Position numbers and translations under genes: made by a program
In this document: one piece after another, positions 1,558-62,741 of the stretch
Layout: every line of letters begins with the position of its first letter
Numbering within the stretch: position 1 is the first letter of the stretch
The notes under the pieces: model-generated
Told to the model about the DNA's origin: nothing
Seen by the model: the letters and a program-made list of their open reading frames with translations, nothing else
Databases searched by the model: none
Source of the DNA: Escherichia phage vB_EcoP-101114UKE3
Sequence record: NC_070982.1
Length of the DNA stretch: 64,000 nt
Strand: one strand, 5' to 3'

Positions 1558-1573
1558 ATAATGATAATGTAGA
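1554..1573 (+). promoter_or_regulatory. Candidate promoter: TGTTATAAT followed by TAATGTAGA
   Basis: Extended -10-like TGTTATAAT at 1554-1562 and a near-copy of the recurring TAATGTATA element at 1565-1573, 12 nt upstream of the ATG at 1585. Confidence 0.35.
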
Positions 1574-8393: not shown

Positions 8394-8917
8394 CAGTAGA
8401 CAGTGTGACTGTTAGCCCTGCGTCTTTAGCAAGTCTAGAGACAGGGGCTACTCGGCAGTTCACTGCAAGCGCGGAGAAAAGTGATGGTTCTACCGAAACA
8501 ACTGGCTTTACTTGGTCAGTGACAGGAGGTGGTTCTATCACTCAGTCGGGTTTGTATACTGCTCCGAGTGCGTCTCAATCCACTGATGTATCCATTACTG
8601 CAACTTTAGAAGGTGTTTCTGGAACAGCAACCATTTCTGAAATTGTTGCTCCTGCTCCTACTATTGTAGCTAAGGGTCCAATTACGGGTAAAACTGGTGG
8701 TTCCTCCACTAATTTCACTACCATGTTTACTGTAACTAATTCTGCTGCTGCGGATTACACGTTTGTTGTAACTCCTACAGAAGCTGGTACAGTAAGTGCA
8801 GCTGGTGCGTTAACCTTAGATGCTGCTGCAAGTGGCGAAGTTACTGTTCAAGCAAGTTTGACAGCTGATCCGTCCATCAATGCAACATGCACTTTTACTG
8901 GTGTAACACCTGCTTAA
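7338..8917 (+). CDS. Major capsid protein, long form: predicted -1 frameshift fusion adding about 178 aa with Ig-like (BIG2-like) domains
   Basis: The -1 frame after the heptamer reads GKGGGVTVDSVTVSPASL...; no separate RBS seen for the downstream ORF 8303..8917. Confidence 0.5.
8375..8381 (+). other. Candidate -1 programmed frameshift slippery heptamer G_GGA_AAG
   Basis: X_XXY_YYZ heptamer in the capsid frame 10 nt before its TAA; the -1 frame stays open to 8917. Confidence 0.5.
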
Positions 8918-8924
8918 AACTAGA

Positions 8925-8950
8925 CCCTGCCTTCGGGCGGGGTTTTTTCG
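8925..8950 (+). terminator. Rho-independent terminator with UUCG loop
   Basis: CCCTGCC-TTCG-GGCGGGG followed by TTTTTT. Confidence 0.6.
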
Positions 8951-8976
8951 TTTTAAGACCTATACAAGCCAGTGTG

Positions 8977-8985
8977 TAATGTATA
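8977..8985 (+). promoter_or_regulatory. Candidate phage promoter element TAATGTATA
   Basis: Exact TAATGTATA 34 nt upstream of the ATG at 9019, just after the capsid terminator. Confidence 0.35.
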
Positions 8986-9018: not shown

Positions 9019-9771
9019 ATGGCGATGCCAGACGTTCAAAACCCAATTAATACCTACGGATGGCTTAAGAAGGCTGTGTCCCTCTGGGCTGACCGTGATG
9101 ACCCTGAATTTGTTAATCAAATTCCAAACTTTATTAACTTTGCAGAAAAGGAAATCTACCGTAATTTACGCATTCCTCCTCTGGAAAAAGAAGTCTATTT
9201 AGATATTAAAGATGGAGTAGCTTATATTCCTCCTGATTACTTAGAAGCTCAATGGATGATGAGAGCTAAAGATGGTACAATCTTCCAAGTAACATCTCCG
9301 GAAGAGATTAGCTATCGTAGACAGCATGGAACAATTAACCCATCTCATTGGAATAATCAACCTGTTAATTTTGCTCGTTTCGGTAGTCGTTTCATTTTCT
9401 ATCCTAGTATTGAAGCAGATACTCCGTACTACCCTGATGATGGAAGCCCTTTGATTCCAGCAGAAAACTCAGTGATTCTTAGCTATTATGCAGACCCACC
9501 GGAATTCCATGAAGATACAGATACTAGTACTATTCTTACTATAGCACCGGAACTTCTTCTGTACTTCACCCTACGTCATGCTTGTCTCTTTGTTCAAGAT
9601 GATAATGGTGTTCAGAAATGGTCAGCATTAGGAAAAGCTATCCTTGATGAAATGGTAGAACAGAATAAGAAACAAGAGTACTCAGGTTCACCTATCGCAA
9701 TTCCGAATAACATGACTCGACTTCAGAGCAGCTTGCCTGATATTTATGGTATTCGTACTTCTCGTGTATAA
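9019..9771 (+). CDS. Virion structural protein (250 aa), possibly head-tail adaptor or tail tubular
   Basis: RBS AGGAGG; position between capsid and tail fibre genes. Confidence 0.45.
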   Translation: MAMPDVQNPINTYGWLKKAVSLWADRDDPEFVNQIPNFINFAEKEIYRNLRIPPLEKEVYLDIKDGVAYIPPDYLEAQWMMRAKDGTIFQVTSPEEISYRRQHGTINPSHWNNQPVNFARFGSRFIFYPSIEADTPYYPDDGSPLIPAENSVILSYYADPPEFHEDTDTSTILTIAPELLLYFTLRHACLFVQDDNGVQKWSALGKAILDEMVEQNKKQEYSGSPIAIPNNMTRLQSSLPDIYGIRTSRV

Positions 9772-21351: not shown

Positions 21352-22149
21352 ATGGATAGGATTTTAGGAGTTTCAGAACTAGACCCACTGGTTCAACAAG
21401 CTGCTAAGAAGTATGGTATTCCTGCTGCTCTTGTTCATGCGGTGATTCAGAGGGAGTCTAGTGGTAAACCCTCTGCCGCTTCAGGAACAGGGCCAGTAGG
21501 ATTGATGCAGATTAGTAAAGGCTTGGCTAAAGATTATGGATATAAACTTGAAGATAGGTTAGACCCTGCAAAGAATATTGACATGGGTGCTAGATATTTA
21601 AGAGATAACCTGAAAGCTTTTGACGGCGATGTGAGGAAGGCTTTGGTGGGGTATTCAGAAGGGACTGGTGGTGCTAAGCAAATGTTTGCTGGTAAGAAAG
21701 GGTTTACACCTCAAGCTTTAGATTCAATGAATAATAAGCTGTTCCTACCATTCTTTGATAAGAACACAGCAGCGGCACAAGTGGCTAATCCTGTAGGTGC
21801 TTTGAAAGCAGTACAGCCTGTGGACCAGTTTGATTCTAATACGCTGACTAGAGAAGGTGCTGCAAATGCTCCCACTCAAGCAGAGATGGCTGCAAGCAAG
21901 GCTGGGGCTTTGGGTGGTCGTCCTGTAGAGTTTTACTCTGATGAACAACAGTCTGGAGAAGATCAAAAACCTCAACAGAACTTTGGTAATGCTGTGTTGG
22001 CAGCTGCTTCTATGCTTGCAGGAAAACAGCCTAACTCTCAAACTGTACAGAGAGCACACGCCCCTACTCAAGCAGGTTCTCGATATAGTCCACAAACACA
22101 AGCTGTGCTGAGACGTCTGTCTAGCATAGGTACTGACATTTACAGATAA
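21352..22149 (+). CDS. Lytic transglycosylase (SLT domain) virion protein (265 aa)
   Basis: N-terminal motif VHAVIQRESSGKPSAASGTGPVGLMQIS resembles the SLT catalytic region; RBS AAGGAGAGG. Confidence 0.65.
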   Translation: MDRILGVSELDPLVQQAAKKYGIPAALVHAVIQRESSGKPSAASGTGPVGLMQISKGLAKDYGYKLEDRLDPAKNIDMGARYLRDNLKAFDGDVRKALVGYSEGTGGAKQMFAGKKGFTPQALDSMNNKLFLPFFDKNTAAAQVANPVGALKAVQPVDQFDSNTLTREGAANAPTQAEMAASKAGALGGRPVEFYSDEQQSGEDQKPQQNFGNAVLAAASMLAGKQPNSQTVQRAHAPTQAGSRYSPQTQAVLRRLSSIGTDIYR

Positions 22150-25894: not shown

Positions 25895-25905
25895 TATAAT
25901 GTATA
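25895..25905 (+). promoter_or_regulatory. Candidate promoter element TATAATGTATA
   Basis: TATAAT overlapping TAATGTATA, 37 nt upstream of the ATG at 25942. Confidence 0.35.
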
Positions 25906-32181: not shown

Positions 32182-32770
32182 AGAGTTCTCTCCGTGTCCG
32201 TACAACAATCCAGTTTAAATAATCTACTGCATCTTCTACAGTAGAATTATTCGCTAGGTAGTATGTATTTCTCTGACTACCTTCAATGTAGGAACGAGAA
32301 TCTCCTTTAAAATCACAACCTTCACGAATCACCTGAATTACCTGAACATGGAAATGTTTCTCTAGTTCTTCAACTTCGGCTTTGAACCCACCATCAGAGA
32401 AGACGATAACATCATTCTGTGATGGGATACGTTGTTGAATACTGCTAACAGCAAGTTTACCCATGCAGGTCTCACCAAACATAGGCTTCAGGTAATTCTC
32501 GCTAGTTGCAATCATCAAGTCTCGAACTGACTTACCGTCCCATTCAGGACGGCTATGTTCTTTCCACTCACGATCGTTGTACAGCTCCATGAACTCATAA
32601 AGAGGTAGACCTAATGCAGCAGCAGCCACTCGATACATAGGCTCCTTAAAAGCCTTTACATGAGGCCTAAACTCGGTGTTACCAAGTGTTTTCTCTAACC
32701 AAGAATTAGCGATTGTATCTTTACCACAACCCGGTGGTCCATTCAGAATTACTACTAATGGTTTACTCAT
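32174..32770 (-). CDS. P-loop kinase, deoxynucleoside monophosphate kinase-like (198 aa)
   Basis: N-terminal P-loop GPPGCGKDT. Confidence 0.5.
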   Translation of the reverse strand: MSKPLVVILNGPPGCGKDTIANSWLEKTLGNTEFRPHVKAFKEPMYRVAAAALGLPLYEFMELYNDREWKEHSRPEWDGKSVRDLMIATSENYLKPMFGETCMGKLAVSSIQQRIPSQNDVIVFSDGGFKAEVEELEKHFHVQVIQVIREGCDFKGDSRSYIEGSQRNTYYLANNSTVEDAVDYLNWIVVRTRRELYV

Positions 32771-33420
32771 TATTGAATCATCCCTTGAAGATCTTCTTTA
32801 TCAAAGTGCTTCTCTACTACCGCTTCATACAGATCACGATTCTCTGAATAACGACGATAGAAGGTTCCGTGTGAAATTCCCAACTCTTGCTGGATGTGAT
32901 CATGTGGGATGCCGAGAAAGAGCATTGAGAACATGCTTGCCATCTTACGGTTTTCCATAATGTCACTCAGGTCTTGGAAGAAGAAAAAGATTCTAGATTC
33001 CAAGAACGGGTCTCCAGTAGAATCATGCTTATCCATCGCAATCTCTAAAGGACTTTCCCATGAATTCATCTCAGGAGGTCTAAACATATCAGCCTCTGGA
33101 ATAGAGTAGATACGTCGGTCTCCAACTGTCTGGCGATTAGAACGAATCGACCAGATGATATTCTTGACACGATAAGTCATGTGCTCAATATCTTTTTCAT
33201 CAGTGAGCAGAAGTTCTTCTTGCTTTGCAAACACAAAACGCCAAGCGTTCAGTAATACTTCCTGAGCAACATCCTCTGCCTCGTGATAGTCTTTAATGTC
33301 ATACATAAAATACTTATGCACAACTTTCCAATTCTCTCGATAGAATTCATCGAAGGTTGGGTAGTACTTAATAGGTATGCCATGAATACGATAGCGTGTG
33401 GGTGTTGTCTTTTTCTTCAT
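32770..33420 (-). CDS. Sigma-70 family (ECF-like) sigma factor (216 aa)
   Basis: Region 2-like [15 protein letters not shown] and region 4-like [29 protein letters not shown]. Confidence 0.55.
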
Positions 33421-33444
33421 AAGTCATCCTTAACTTACTTTACA

Positions 33445-33669
33445 TTAAACTACACAGAATAAATACATTGCTGTTTCAGGGGAAGGTATGTGGTCACTAG
33501 GATATCTAACCCTAATCCACTCATCATCTTCTGCTACATAATAAGCCCAATAAGACCCATTTTCATTAATAAAGAACTTGAAGGTACAACCAAAGATTTG
33601 GTTATTGTGTTCCCATACTGCATGAAACTGAGTAACACCTTCTGGTATTGTAAGTTCCGCTCTGATCAT
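33445..33669 (-). CDS. Hypothetical protein (74 aa)
   Basis: ORF whose start overlaps the o-spanin stop. Confidence 0.4.
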   Translation of the reverse strand: MIRAELTIPEGVTQFHAVWEHNNQIFGCTFKFFINENGSYWAYYVAEDDEWIRVRYPSDHIPSPETAMYLFCVV

Positions 33670-34217: not shown

Positions 34218-34958
34218 TTAGAAAGGGCTGTCATCTTCTTCAAAGGTAGACTGCGGCTCTTCGTTAATAGTAGGGATACTTGGAGTAGCATCTTTCTGTT
34301 CAGTATCAGAAGCTTTAGTAACTTCACGACCAGCCAGAGGGATGTTCTTAGCATCATTAGCTTGGGTCAGAAGATTACGTTGGAATGGGAAGATTGCTTG
34401 ATAAGCAGCCAAGTTAGCATCAGTCTCAGCATACGGTTCGAAGAAGATCAACTCACTACGAGGGGCACCTACAGCATCACGATATTTGGTAGGGATTGGA
34501 GTGATACTCTTAATGGAGTTTTTCTTCTCACCAGCTTTGTTTACATAGGAATTAACCAGAATGTTAACAGGCTGACCTAGCAGCATATCTTTAAACCAAC
34601 CCAAATCACCTTTCAGTGCTTGAACACTTGGGTCGATCATTTTAATCAGATTCAGAATACCAGAGTTCTTAGCTCGTGGGTTTACGTCGAAAGTTTTAAA
34701 CTGGCAAGCAGGACGAGGGTCCAGAGGTTTGCCTTCATTATCAGTCCCTGTTGCATCTACGCCAATCAGCTCAAAAGCTAAGTCCATACGGAAAGCTGGG
34801 TTCTTAGGGGTAACTGCTTTGGTCTTAGGGTCAATCCAAGGGTCACGATTGTGAACACCTAAACCTACAACACGAACAATACGTGCTTCGTACTCACCAT
34901 CAGGGATTACATCGTAGTTGGATTTACGGGATACAGACAGTTCAGGGATCATAGACAT
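34218..34958 (-). CDS. ssb: Single-stranded DNA-binding protein (246 aa)
   Basis: Acidic C-terminal tail EEDDSPF resembling the SSB DDDIPF-type tail; position in the replication module. Confidence 0.55.
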   Translation of the reverse strand: MSMIPELSVSRKSNYDVIPDGEYEARIVRVVGLGVHNRDPWIDPKTKAVTPKNPAFRMDLAFELIGVDATGTDNEGKPLDPRPACQFKTFDVNPRAKNSGILNLIKMIDPSVQALKGDLGWFKDMLLGQPVNILVNSYVNKAGEKKNSIKSITPIPTKYRDAVGAPRSELIFFEPYAETDANLAAYQAIFPFQRNLLTQANDAKNIPLAGREVTKASDTEQKDATPSIPTINEEPQSTFEEDDSPF

Positions 34959-35017
34959 ATTAATATTTCCTTATATAAATTTAAGATTGTTGCTCTCTTT
35001 GAGCGGTTTGTATACTA

Positions 35018-35026
35018 TATACATTA
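35018..35026 (-). promoter_or_regulatory. Candidate promoter element TAATGTATA upstream of the SSB gene
   Basis: Minus strand reads GTGTAATGTATATA about 60 nt upstream of the SSB ATG. Confidence 0.3.
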
Positions 35027-35087
35027 CACTTATACAGATAAGGTTCTATTATACTATAACCTTTTTGGTAGTAGATAATGACAAGTA

Positions 35088-35096
35088 GTAATGTAT
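35088..35096 (+). promoter_or_regulatory. Plus-strand copy of TAATGTATA in the AT-rich intergenic region
   Basis: GTAGTAATGTATATATGG on the plus strand, divergent from the minus-strand copy at 35018-35026. Confidence 0.25.
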
Positions 35097-35372
35097 ATAT
35101 GGTATAGCTAGTAAAGCTATTGCAGGCTTGTATATTGGGCAATCATTGTAACCCTTGCAAGTACCGAAGGGCAGGAGACACCTGCGAGATAAAATAGAGA
35201 ATTAAGGAAATCCTTGATTTAGGTTGTAGGGACTCCTAGGGACTTTGATTCTCTATTTAAAAGAATATTAATTACTTACTACCTAAATAATTAACTAACT
35301 TACTTAAACCAAACTCAAGAATAATAGATAAAAAGATTATTCCTAAGAAAGCTAAAAAGTAAAGGATATAAG

Positions 35373-35993
35373 TTACCATTCAAGTAAACCTTTAAAGTTA
35401 GTTTGTTCTACTATCCTCTGATAAGGTAAGTTAGATTCTGCTTGTTTGCTTAACACCTCTTGTACTTTATCAGTAATTGAATAATCTTTTTGTAATAAAG
35501 AAGCTACCCACTCTTTCCTACTTTCCAGTTCTTTTCTAATCTCTTGCAGAGACACAGCTCTGTAATCAATTTGTTCCATAGAAGTACAGAAGTATCTCCA
35601 ATCTCTGATAGTAGAATTATGAGTATGAGCATAGATATTATACTTTCCTCTCATTTCATCAGAGTGAATAGGAATATGAGTTACCCAAAACTCTTTGTAC
35701 TTATAATCACCACTGATGTGTCTAAAGACTTTCATCATATCAGGGAGAAGTTCTAATCTGTCATGGTTTCCTAAGACAAGATGTTTCTCTCCTTTTACTT
35801 CAGCGATAATATCAAGTGCATATTTCTCAAACACCCAATCACCTGTAAAGAAAGTTTTATCACGTTTAGTAACATGGTCAAACGCTGCTAAGATAGCTTT
35901 GTCGTGTTCTTCAATACTACTAAACTTCTTCCTAAAGTTACAGATGTTACGATGGCCTAGGTGACCATCACCTGCAAAATAAACTTCAGCCAT
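35373..35993 (-). CDS. Calcineurin-like metallophosphoesterase (206 aa)
   Basis: GDGHLGH and GNHD motifs. Confidence 0.6.
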   Translation of the reverse strand: MAEVYFAGDGHLGHRNICNFRKKFSSIEEHDKAILAAFDHVTKRDKTFFTGDWVFEKYALDIIAEVKGEKHLVLGNHDRLELLPDMMKVFRHISGDYKYKEFWVTHIPIHSDEMRGKYNIYAHTHNSTIRDWRYFCTSMEQIDYRAVSLQEIRKELESRKEWVASLLQKDYSITDKVQEVLSKQAESNLPYQRIVEQTNFKGLLEW

Positions 35994-36564: not shown

Positions 36565-36767
36565 TTAACTTCCTCAATATCAACTAATTCAAAACTTCCT
36601 ATTTCTTCAAGCTTAATAATCTCTTTAACTTTCTCAACAGCTTTAATAGGGTTTTCTTCTTCTACAACTTTACACCCTGATACTTCAAGACTGCCTGTTC
36701 CACGAAGGTATAAATTCAACTTATAAACTACTTTGTAGTATCTCATCGTGCTCCCAATTTCTTTCAT
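36561..36767 (-). CDS. Hypothetical protein (68 aa)
   Basis: ORF in a tightly packed operon. Confidence 0.4.
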   Translation of the reverse strand: MKEIGSTMRYYKVVYKLNLYLRGTGSLEVSGCKVVEEENPIKAVEKVKEIIKLEEIGSFELVDIEEVK

Positions 36768-41574: not shown

Positions 41575-41583
41575 TATACATTA
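41575..41583 (-). promoter_or_regulatory. Candidate promoter element TAATGTATA upstream of the basic-protein gene
   Basis: Minus strand reads CATAATGTATACTCC about 35 nt upstream of the ATG; overlaps an 8-bp inverted repeat ACTCCTTA / TAAGGAGT that includes the RBS. Confidence 0.35.
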
Positions 41584-42823: not shown

Positions 42824-43299
42824 TCCAAAACCCTTTCTTCTAAATCATAAAAGATTTGATTTGTCCCATTATTCTCAACAAGCACTGTTCCATTATCTAG
42901 CAGGGTAGCAACTTGGGAATAAGGAATGTTCTTTAACATCAGAGCATTAATGGTCGGCTTGTTTTTGAAGTAAGCGACAGGCTCAACATAGAAGGAAATC
43001 CCACGACTTCCTTTAATTGGGGTGCTTGAAGATAGAACCCAAATTGTTTCTGGCTTGTCTATTTCCTTTTCAACACCAACCTCAACAAGAGAGTCAGCAG
43101 CGAAACCTACAGGACGCCTAGAAGAACCAAGCAACCGAACATATCCCGGTAATTTTGACATATTAGACCAACTACCAGTGTTTTCATTAAACACAGGTCT
43201 TACATCACCATATGCCCAAACCAGATTATCATAGTCACGGGCTATGTATTTAACCCAATCAGGAACATCATACTCCCTTCCTTCAAAAATAGCTTTCAT
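42820..43299 (-). CDS. Hypothetical protein (159 aa)
   Basis: RBS AAGGT. Confidence 0.45.
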   Translation of the reverse strand: MKAIFEGREYDVPDWVKYIARDYDNLVWAYGDVRPVFNENTGSWSNMSKLPGYVRLLGSSRRPVGFAADSLVEVGVEKEIDKPETIWVLSSSTPIKGSRGISFYVEPVAYFKNKPTINALMLKNIPYSQVATLLDNGTVLVENNGTNQIFYDLEERVLE

Positions 43300-46146: not shown

Positions 46147-46216
46147 AACTCTCTCCTGTTTCATACAATATTCTTATACTGTATATACATTTGAGAGTTA
46201 TCATATCTACTACCAA

Positions 46217-52496: not shown

Positions 52497-52682
52497 TTAT
52501 TCTACTTCGAAGTGTTTGATCACACCAGTCAGTACATCAGATTGGAATGTACCCACTAGCTCTGTACCTCGGAAAAAGTTAACACTTGTTCCAAGTGATT
52601 CAAAGCGATCTGCTTGAATGTCCAGAGATTGAATATTTCCTTCTGCTGACATTGTACGAAACATGATTGTGTATTTATTCAC
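52497..52682 (-). CDS. Small hypothetical protein (61 aa), GTG start
   Basis: GTG at 52682 with AAGGGAG RBS, overlapping the upstream stop. Confidence 0.35.
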   Translation of the reverse strand: MNKYTIMFRTMSAEGNIQSLDIQADRFESLGTSVNFFRGTELVGTFQSDVLTGVIKHFEVE

Positions 52683-52921
52683 AGACTCGTTACTCCCTTA
52701 TCTGCTTGTGCAATTGCGATGATACGCTCAGCACATTCCATTGAATACTTATCACCTCGTTTGAGGAAGGTGATGATTGCAGAGAACTGATTACCAATCA
52801 TTCTCTTATTTGTGATACCAAACTCTTCACAGAGTTGGTTGATAGCTTTACGAGAGCCTACAATCAGAGGCTCTTTTTCTTCGGTCATTCCACGGCTGAT
52901 CAAATCTTCGATAGACAACAT
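52679..52921 (-). CDS. Small hypothetical protein (80 aa)
   Basis: ORF in the operon. Confidence 0.4.
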   Translation of the reverse strand: MLSIEDLISRGMTEEKEPLIVGSRKAINQLCEEFGITNKRMIGNQFSAIITFLKRGDKYSMECAERIIAIAQADKGVTSL

Positions 52922-57844: not shown

Positions 57845-58467
57845 AATGATTCCACCAACTCTACATTATATGATGACAGGTCTGAAGAAATATGCTTGAA
57901 CTTCTCCAGAAGGTTTAAAGATTGACGACCATTGTCGCCATAACCAGCTTCAAGAAGCACGTTTCCAACGTAAGCCCCTTTGTAATAAACTTTTCCATCG
58001 ACAGGATTGATATAGATGAAACGAGTAACCAACCCTTCAAACTCTGGATTAAACAGGTTATACACCAAATCACCCGGAATCGAACGTCCGAGAGAAGGTG
58101 GAGTACCACGAAGTTTATTCCCCATCAAGCCTTTAGCTCGCTGACGAACAGGGTTGATATGGGTCCAGCTCACCACGTTATTACCATGCTGAAGGTATCC
58201 TACATCTGGAGACTCCAGAATGAGGCTGTGATCAAACACTGGGATATTACTAACAATCTGACGTTCAAACTGACCTTCGGAGTTTTTAGTCCAGCGTTCC
58301 GCCTCAAACACTAAAGACATTTCAGCGTCGTGTGAGTAGTCGTCGATATCAAAGTTACCTTGCTGACGAACATCAAGCACATATAGAGGGAGGTTTTTAC
58401 CATCAGGTGATCGCTGAGCAATCCATGTTCCACAATAATAGTGTTGAAAATCTCTTAACAAGCTCAC
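57841..58467 (-). CDS. Hypothetical protein (208 aa), GTG start
   Basis: GTG at 58467 with AAGGTGA RBS; no early in-frame ATG. Confidence 0.45.
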   Translation of the reverse strand: MSLLRDFQHYYCGTWIAQRSPDGKNLPLYVLDVRQQGNFDIDDYSHDAEMSLVFEAERWTKNSEGQFERQIVSNIPVFDHSLILESPDVGYLQHGNNVVSWTHINPVRQRAKGLMGNKLRGTPPSLGRSIPGDLVYNLFNPEFEGLVTRFIYINPVDGKVYYKGAYVGNVLLEAGYGDNGRQSLNLLEKFKHISSDLSSYNVELVESL

Positions 58468-62713: not shown

Positions 62714-62741
62714 GTTTTTATTACCTTACATTAAAGAGAGA

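Follow-up and report, generated by a model that had tools for sequence, protein, structure and literature searches.

Homologues of the six mapped phiEco32 promoters, and a candidate seventh promoter facing a conserved non-coding block, in a phiEco32-like Escherichia phage

The window analysed here is the whole 64,000-nt stretch of Escherichia phage vB_EcoP-101114UKE3 (NC_070982.1), and it is 100% identical throughout, as a circular permutation, to the deposited record MZ234015 (Escherichia phage vB_EcoP-101114BS3). According to its sequence, the phage is a phiEco32-like podovirus of the subfamily Gordonclarkvirinae; it shows ~93% identity to phiEco32 across the structural region, and its close relative SU7 is a Suseptimavirus. 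The gene map used to separate coding from non-coding DNA was taken from MZ234015 and transferred to the window, which gave a non-coding share of 2,710 nt (4.2%). The two ends of the MZ234015 record overlap by 55 bp at window positions 21548-21602, and this is an assembly overlap and not a true genome end. Relatives carrying gp36 were collected by tblastn against a phage collection; a search of IMG/VR with the gp36 protein alone returned one locus, this single-protein pattern being too strict.

The phage encodes homologues of the phiEco32 sigma factor gp36 and of the small protein gp79 (Table 1). The sole PDB match of the gp36 homologue is chain F of 9m7y, described as an "RNA polymerase ECF sigma factor" (E = 1e-117), and the alignment revealed that all ten DNA-contact residues named in the structural study (PMC12276001) are kept in it (E79, H80, Y83, R84, W90, S91, S94, N95, Y186, and R187). 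Two gene names proposed by the first-pass annotation find no support in PHROGs: the "small terminase" (1585-2052, + strand) belongs to phrog_8771 and the "SSB" (34218-34958, - strand) to phrog_6599, both of them families of unknown function.

Table 1. Promoter homologues, candidate seventh promoter, conserved block, and the sigma factor and gp79 genes in the window
Feature	Position	Strand	Predicted +1	Start codon	Sequence or relation to phiEco32
P6 homologue (late)	1565-1573	+	~1580		TAATGTAGA; 9-mer and flanks as phiEco32 1677-1685 before gene 6
P13 homologue (late)	8977-8985	+	~8992	9019	TAATGTATA; ~100 nt upstream almost identical to phiEco32 9101-9109 region
P26 homologue (late)	25897-25905	+	~25912	25942	TAATGTATA; phiEco32 upstream-region match
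P40 homologue (middle)	35018-35026	-	~35011	34958	TAATGTATA; phiEco32 upstream-region match
P58 homologue (middle)	41575-41583	-	~41568		TAATGTATA; motif and 40 nt downstream identical to phiEco32 42937-42945
P68 homologue (middle)	46184-46215	-	~46177		AAATGTATA at 46184-46192 and TGGTAGTAGAT at 46205-46215
Orphan, candidate gp36 promoter	35066-35097	+	~35104		TGGTAGTAGAT at 35066-35076 (-38 to -28), 12-nt spacer, TAATGTATA at 35089-35097; phiEco32 counterpart 36704-36712 (+), same place
Conserved block (~160 nt), candidate non-coding RNA or origin/regulatory region	35104-35265	+
Phage sigma factor gene (gp36 homologue, 216 aa)	32770-33420	-			80% identical to phiEco32 gp36
gp79 homologue gene (80 aa)	52679-52921	-			76% identical to phiEco32 gp79

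The 9-mer TAATGTATA occurs five times in the 64-kb window, at 8977-8985 (+), 25897-25905 (+), 35018-35026 (-), 35089-35097 (+), and 41575-41583 (-), against 0.53 copies expected, and no more than two were found in any of 100 dinucleotide shuffles. The first-pass annotation had listed these same copies, four of them with the right coordinates and the remaining one, the orphan, a base too low (35088-35096). The near-copies that it reported are where it placed them: TAATGTAGA at 1565-1573 (+) and 57860-57868 (-), AAATGTATA at 46184-46192 (-), and TAATGTAA at 62726-62733 (-). The one-mismatch family of TAATGTATA is not enriched in the window (24 matches versus 18.1 expected), so that near-copies need to be judged individually. 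A genome-wide motif search, which had been suggested as a check, was run and an intergenic excess over expectation was found: non-coding DNA, only 4.2% of the window, holds 8 of 14 matches to AATGTANA (binomial P = 2.4e-8) and 10 of the 39 matches to AATGTA (binomial P = 3.8e-6). AATGTA is present in all seven strong sites, five of which carry TAATGTATA, with TAATGTAGA at the P6 homologue and AAATGTATA at the P68 homologue. Six of these seven sites face a gene on the same strand, the distance from the end of the motif to the start codon being 11-59 nt; the distance stated earlier was 20-60 nt, from which P6 departs with its 11 nt.

In phiEco32, six promoters have been mapped experimentally, before genes 6, 13, 26, 40, 58, and 68; tAATGTAtA is the one consensus common to them all, their transcripts begin 6-8 bp further downstream, and they are used by the E. 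coli core polymerase together with the phage sigma factor gp36 (PMC8948821; PMC4331800; PMC4281155). A comparison of upstream regions with phiEco32 paired six sites of the window one-to-one with P6, P13, P26, P40, P58, and P68, and the 9-mer variant at each of them is identical to that of its counterpart. The first-pass annotation had pointed to a similar element reported for phiEco32-type phages, and six of its sites are indeed homologues of mapped phiEco32 promoters. Two of the late sites come after terminator hairpins: the P6 homologue lies directly 3' of one at 1531-1549 (T-run 1550-1554), and the P13 homologue follows another at 8925-8942 (T-run 8943-8948). The P6 homologue has TGGGA at -38 to -34, and a perfect TATAAT (1557-1562) is found 3 nt upstream of its 9-mer. 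In the case of P58, the DNA upstream has diverged from phiEco32 and TGGAA is kept at -38 to -34, and at P40 all 14 related phages that were compared carry GTAATGTATA unchanged. Two annotated small ORFs overlap these sites, 101114BS3_136 (8887-8979, +) over P13 and 101114BS3_016 (34981-35142, -) over P40 and the orphan; both are situated on promoter DNA and are probably not genes.

The way in which gp36 recognizes these promoters has been described in a 2025 cryo-EM study of the open complex on P68, which also included mutagenesis (PDB 9m7y; PMC12276001). In this complex, AATGTA occupies -14 to -9 and is read by the sigma2-like domain at the N-terminus of gp36, with N95 contacting -14A, S91 contacting -13A, S94 contacting the A opposite -12T, and E79/H80 contacting -11G; stacking involves W90 with the -12 base pair and Y83 with -11G, and the melted DNA extends from -11 to +2 (PMC12276001). 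The sigma4-like C-terminal domain adds a contact of R187 to -37G and one of Y186 to the T opposite -34A, both within the GGTAG of P68 (PMC12276001). Furthermore, phiEco32 gp79 displaces sigma70 and stabilizes gp36 open complexes, and it stimulates in vitro transcription of P26 by the gp36 holoenzyme 4-fold (PMC12276001). The initial suggestion that the element is of the -10 type and possibly recognized by the sigma factor of the phage agrees both with this structure, in which gp36 reads AATGTA, and with the presence of gp36 and gp79 homologues in the window. We consider it very probable (about 93%) that the middle and late promoters have TAATGTATA as their -10-like core and that it is read by the phage sigma factor.

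By homology with phiEco32, the early genes would be transcribed by the host sigma70 polymerase after infection, and the phage would then make its own sigma factor and gp79, the latter pushing sigma70 off the core enzyme and stabilizing gp36 there. The N-terminal domain of gp36 would hydrogen-bond -14A, -13A, the A opposite -12T, and -11G, with W90 stacked on the -12 base pair, the DNA would be opened from -11, and the sigma4-like C-terminal domain would touch the -37/-34 region; transcription would start ~7 nt past the 9-mer. The sites on the + strand (1565, 8977, and 25897) would direct transcription of the late structural and packaging genes and those on the - strand (35018, 41575, and 46184) that of the middle genes, and the seventh copy (35089-35097, +) would most likely work in the same mode, firing away from P40 into the non-coding block. 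The start sites, the dependence on gp36, and the stimulation by gp79 in this phage are those that would be expected from phiEco32. Several points count against this explanation. The sigma factor of the window is only 80% identical to the gp36 that has been studied, and several sites also resemble a sigma70 -10 box, as set out below. Moreover, the predicted P6 start lies downstream of the Shine-Dalgarno sequence AGGAG of gene 6 (1574-1578), leaving a leader of 5 nt, which is odd if the promoter serves gene 6.

A different proposal would be that the sites are promoters of the host sigma70, or dual promoters used by sigma70 and gp36, TAAT being the 3' part of a TATAAT-like -10 box. The overlap with TATAAT that had been pointed out for several sites does exist, since the hexamers ending in the TAAT of the motif match TATAAT in 4-6 of 6 positions, with an exact TATAAT at P26. 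The best -35-like hexamers match TTGACA in 3-4 of 6 positions at 16-nt spacing, a TTGGTA at this spacing resembles a weak -35 box, and the SU10 genome paper considers that some genes may be expressed by both polymerases (PMC4281155). However, the invariant part of the element does not stop at TAAT and includes GTATA, a stretch that is dispensable for sigma70, and matches of only 3-4 of 6 in the -35-like hexamers make a pure sigma70 reading weak. A simple sigma70 consensus scan of 34700-35700 called neither P40 nor the orphan. The phiEco32 counterparts are transcribed by the gp36 holoenzyme, while transcription by sigma70 is switched off by gp79 (PMC8948821; PMC12276001). Recognition by sigma70, alone or shared with gp36, seems to us very improbable as the explanation of the motif, and some recognition by both, as suggested for SU10, may occur.

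Recognition by gp36 would involve more than the 9-mer. When the seven sites of the window and seven of phiEco32 were aligned on it, T-R-R-N-A was found at -38 to -34 in 13 of the 14 (7/7 in phiEco32 and 6/7 in the window), the sole exception being P40 of the window, which has ATAGA there. Position -34 is A in all 14 sites, and in the window -37 is G at four sites, the other three having A or T there. T-R-R-N-A with -34A fits the -37/-34 contact of the structure, and the promoters are not purely single-element because this contact in the -35 region also exists. In ES17-type phages, P40 has different DNA on its upstream side owing to an insertion of ~120 nt between the orphan and this promoter, and the inserted sequence again supplies a -35 box for it, CGGTAG at -38 to -33. 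The late P13 (8954-8962) and P26 (25874-25882) have TAAGACCTA in common at -38 to -30, both in the window and in phiEco32, and the middle promoters do not carry it; it might help to set late versus middle timing, or the response to gp79. As a genome-wide late-promoter box TAAGACCTA was rejected, there being only four exact copies, two of them unrelated and antisense, and no enrichment of the sequence alone; what stands out is solely that P13 and P26 have it in exactly the same place. P68 and the orphan, for their part, both carry TGGTAGTAGAT at -38 to -28.

Judged individually, the near-copies that the first-pass annotation had taken as elements divide into two that are upheld, 1565 (P6) and 46184 (P68), and two that are not, 57860 and 62726, which show no upstream signature and are not conserved. 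The TAATGTAGA at 57860-57868 (-) is probably not a promoter, as it has ATTTC at -38 to -34 and hence no -34A; it falls within coding sequence, near the 3' end of the gene 85 homologue, and its phiEco32 counterpart reads TATAATATTAC. The TAATGTAA at 62726-62733 (-) is probably not one either, with the last two consensus positions missing and CAATT at -38 to -34; nothing in phiEco32 corresponds to its upstream region, and it belongs to the early part of the genome, which sigma70 transcribes. A further candidate, TAATGTAAA at 33439-33447 (-), was considered as an autoregulatory promoter 20 nt before the sigma factor gene and was rejected, having CAATG and no -34A; it is found only in SU7-type relatives, and the gene preceding it ends with its TAA as stop codon. 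These three near-copies are probably chance matches. A full-length position weight matrix built from the six phiEco32 promoters placed the six homologues and the orphan all in its top 8, but this ranking was not used as evidence because the matrix is over-fitted to homologous spacer sequence. That the repeats as a whole are an AT-rich 9-mer recurring by chance in AT-rich intergenic DNA, as the lack of enrichment of the one-mismatch family and the accidental look of at least three near-copies (33439, 57860, and 62726) might suggest, is excluded for practical purposes by the number of exact copies (five, a figure reached in 0 of 100 shuffles), by their intergenic enrichment, and by the conservation of position and sequence at every site homologous to phiEco32, which for P40 and the orphan extends to 14 phages.

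The window agrees with the phiEco32 system in the 9-mer variants, the genome positions, the cognate sigma factor, gp79, the contact residues, the -34A, and the GGTAG box of P68, and differs from it in the sequence of the sigma factor (80% identity) and in the upstream flanks of P58 and P6. In phage 7-11, the late promoters have the form GTAAtg-(16)-aCTA and are read by SaPh711_gp47 (PMC8948821). As in the window, a phage sigma factor there redirects the host core enzyme to late genes from equivalent positions, and the promoter core contains TAATG; in contrast, those promoters plainly consist of two boxes, the downstream one being different, the sigma factor is ~15% identical to gp36, and there is neither a gp79 nor a middle class (PMC8948821). 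Bacterial extended -10 and ECF promoters are comparable in that a sigma2-like domain reads the region around -10, with melting from -11, and a sigma4-like domain is located at -35. However, gp36 reads AATGTA and not TATAAT or a -10 of the ECF CGTC type, unwinding begins at the G, contact with the -35 region is weak and degenerate, and the C-terminal domain of gp36 binds the flap-tip helix differently from bacterial sigma factors (PMC12276001).

The element is therefore an already characterized promoter class, which has been mapped, mutated, and structurally solved in the type phage, and its finding in the window is a rediscovery. With it, the middle and late transcription units can be annotated confidently in the window phage and in the other 96 deposited records with gp36, and the promoter, the sigma factor, and gp79 have been discussed as orthogonal parts for use as synthetic-biology tools (PMC12276001). 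The research value is limited to the antisense-oriented seventh copy and the conserved non-coding block, which represent a modest lead.

This seventh copy, the orphan, is divergent from P40. Its TGGTAGTAGAT is spaced from the 9-mer exactly as at P68, and the combination GGTAGTA-N(14-18)-AATGTA is found twice in the window, at the orphan and at P68, when 0.01 occurrences would be expected. Each Kuravirus genome in IMG/VR contains exactly two such sites, and the other IMG/VR matches to this pattern look like unrelated chance. In an alignment of the region from 14 phages, TAATGTATATA is invariant and TGGTAGTAGAT is invariant in 13, ES17 having TGGTAGTATAT; the 12-nt spacer between the boxes drifts in sequence and is constant in length. 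Conserved boxes separated by a drifting spacer of fixed length are the footprint expected of a two-box promoter. Both boxes are kept in seven further metagenomic and viral contigs, the six ES17-type ones among them having TGGTAGTATAT, and overall the orphan is kept in 20 of the 21 related sequences compared. In one sequence, locus L035 (metagenome contig ERZ1034915 NODE-75), AATATA replaces AATGTA at the orphan; because this changes the -11G that gp36 would read, at least one lineage may do without the orphan. Taken together, these data suggest that the orphan is probably a seventh gp36 promoter, a reading that we favor with less assurance than the assignment of the motif as a whole.

The orphan does not follow the location upstream of genes that is the rule in phiEco32, as no gene lies downstream on the same strand. 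An ORF search of the + strand downstream found only a 25-aa ORF with a TTG start, which was rejected as a protein-coding target because it is replaced in ES17-type phages. In the literature beyond the primary papers (Pavlova 2012; Savalia 2008), the seventh copy is not among the six published phiEco32 promoters, so that it stands outside the published set, and an extra copy facing a conserved gene-free stretch seems not to have been described before. A published computational search for promoters covered only the gene-sense strand of intergenic regions (PMC4331800), and it would consequently have missed the orphan. In a literature search for transcriptomics of phiEco32-like phages nothing relevant was found.

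The DNA facing the orphan is a block of ~160 nt that is almost invariant in 14 phages otherwise 80-93% identical. It was found in 97 phage records, a number equal to that of the records with gp36, and nearly all of the matches listed show no annotation over it. The + strand of the block contains no ORF longer than 25 aa, and in Rfam no family reached its gathering score anywhere in the window, the top hits in 34900-35450 having E-values of 1.4-8 and staying far below those scores; ARAGORN found neither tRNA nor tmRNA. The block includes a 5' hairpin at 35105-35119 (+2 to +16) and a long hairpin at 35192-35258. Folding of the + strand gave -45.4 kcal/mol (z -2.68) and that of the - strand -35.7 kcal/mol (z -2.0). 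In the 5' hairpin, pairs change between CG, AU, and UA and between GC and GU, the G-U pairs being valid on the + strand only; beyond this hairpin the block is too conserved for a covariation test. In addition, a direct repeat, TAGGGACT, is present twice with a spacing of 10 bp (35227-35234 and 35237-35244), and in EK010, TH42, Paul, and an ECBP2-like IMG/VR contig the copies are GAGGACT and TAGGACT, one G fewer each. This repeat hints at a putative DNA-level, iteron-like site for protein binding.

A promoter at the orphan has one competitor that deserves consideration. The 9-mers of the orphan and P40 are part of a perfect 12-nt inverted repeat (35016-35027 / 35088-35099, 60 nt apart), and the orphan could be simply one arm of a protein-binding palindrome, or of an RNA stem in read-through transcripts of the - strand, and not a promoter. 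The block would then have its role in the - strand, where it could terminate or process transcripts upstream of P40. In favor of this, the long hairpin (35192-35258) is followed on the - strand by a T-run, TTTTA in the window and T5 in most relatives. However, this proposal leaves unexplained the conserved TGGTAGTAGAT box of the P68 type at the spacing of P68, as well as the drifting spacer. Furthermore, both the 5' hairpin and the long hairpin contain G-U pairs that are valid on the + strand only, the + strand folds more stably than the - strand, and in ES17-type phages the insertion moves the arms of the inverted repeat far apart and both arms are kept. We regard this alternative as unlikely.

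If the orphan is a gp36 promoter, what it serves can be proposed only tentatively. It is possible that, as a promoter of the P68 type, it produces late in infection a structured RNA of ~160 nt, which might be regulatory or antisense, or might prime or activate an origin of replication. In T4 oriF and oriG and in the T7 primary origin, a phage promoter without a gene gives rise to a transcript that primes or activates replication. The layout at the orphan, a promoter without an ORF, then the conserved block and then AT-rich DNA, resembles these origins in its middle-type promoter, its conserved non-coding stretch, its AT-rich DNA, and its lack of an ORF; the likeness is offered as an analogy of layout, with no claim of membership. 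Should the orphan be active, a well-studied model of transcription control in phages would gain a non-coding RNA or an origin-activating transcript.

Finally, a second version of the block exists in ES17 (L013), in ECBP2-like sequences (L005 and L019), and in L034-L039. In these, the ~40 nt that follow the 5' hairpin (the counterpart of window positions 35124-35165) are swapped for an unrelated segment of ~65 nt with a hairpin of its own (TCTCTCA...TGAGAGA), and both flanks of the swapped segment stay conserved.
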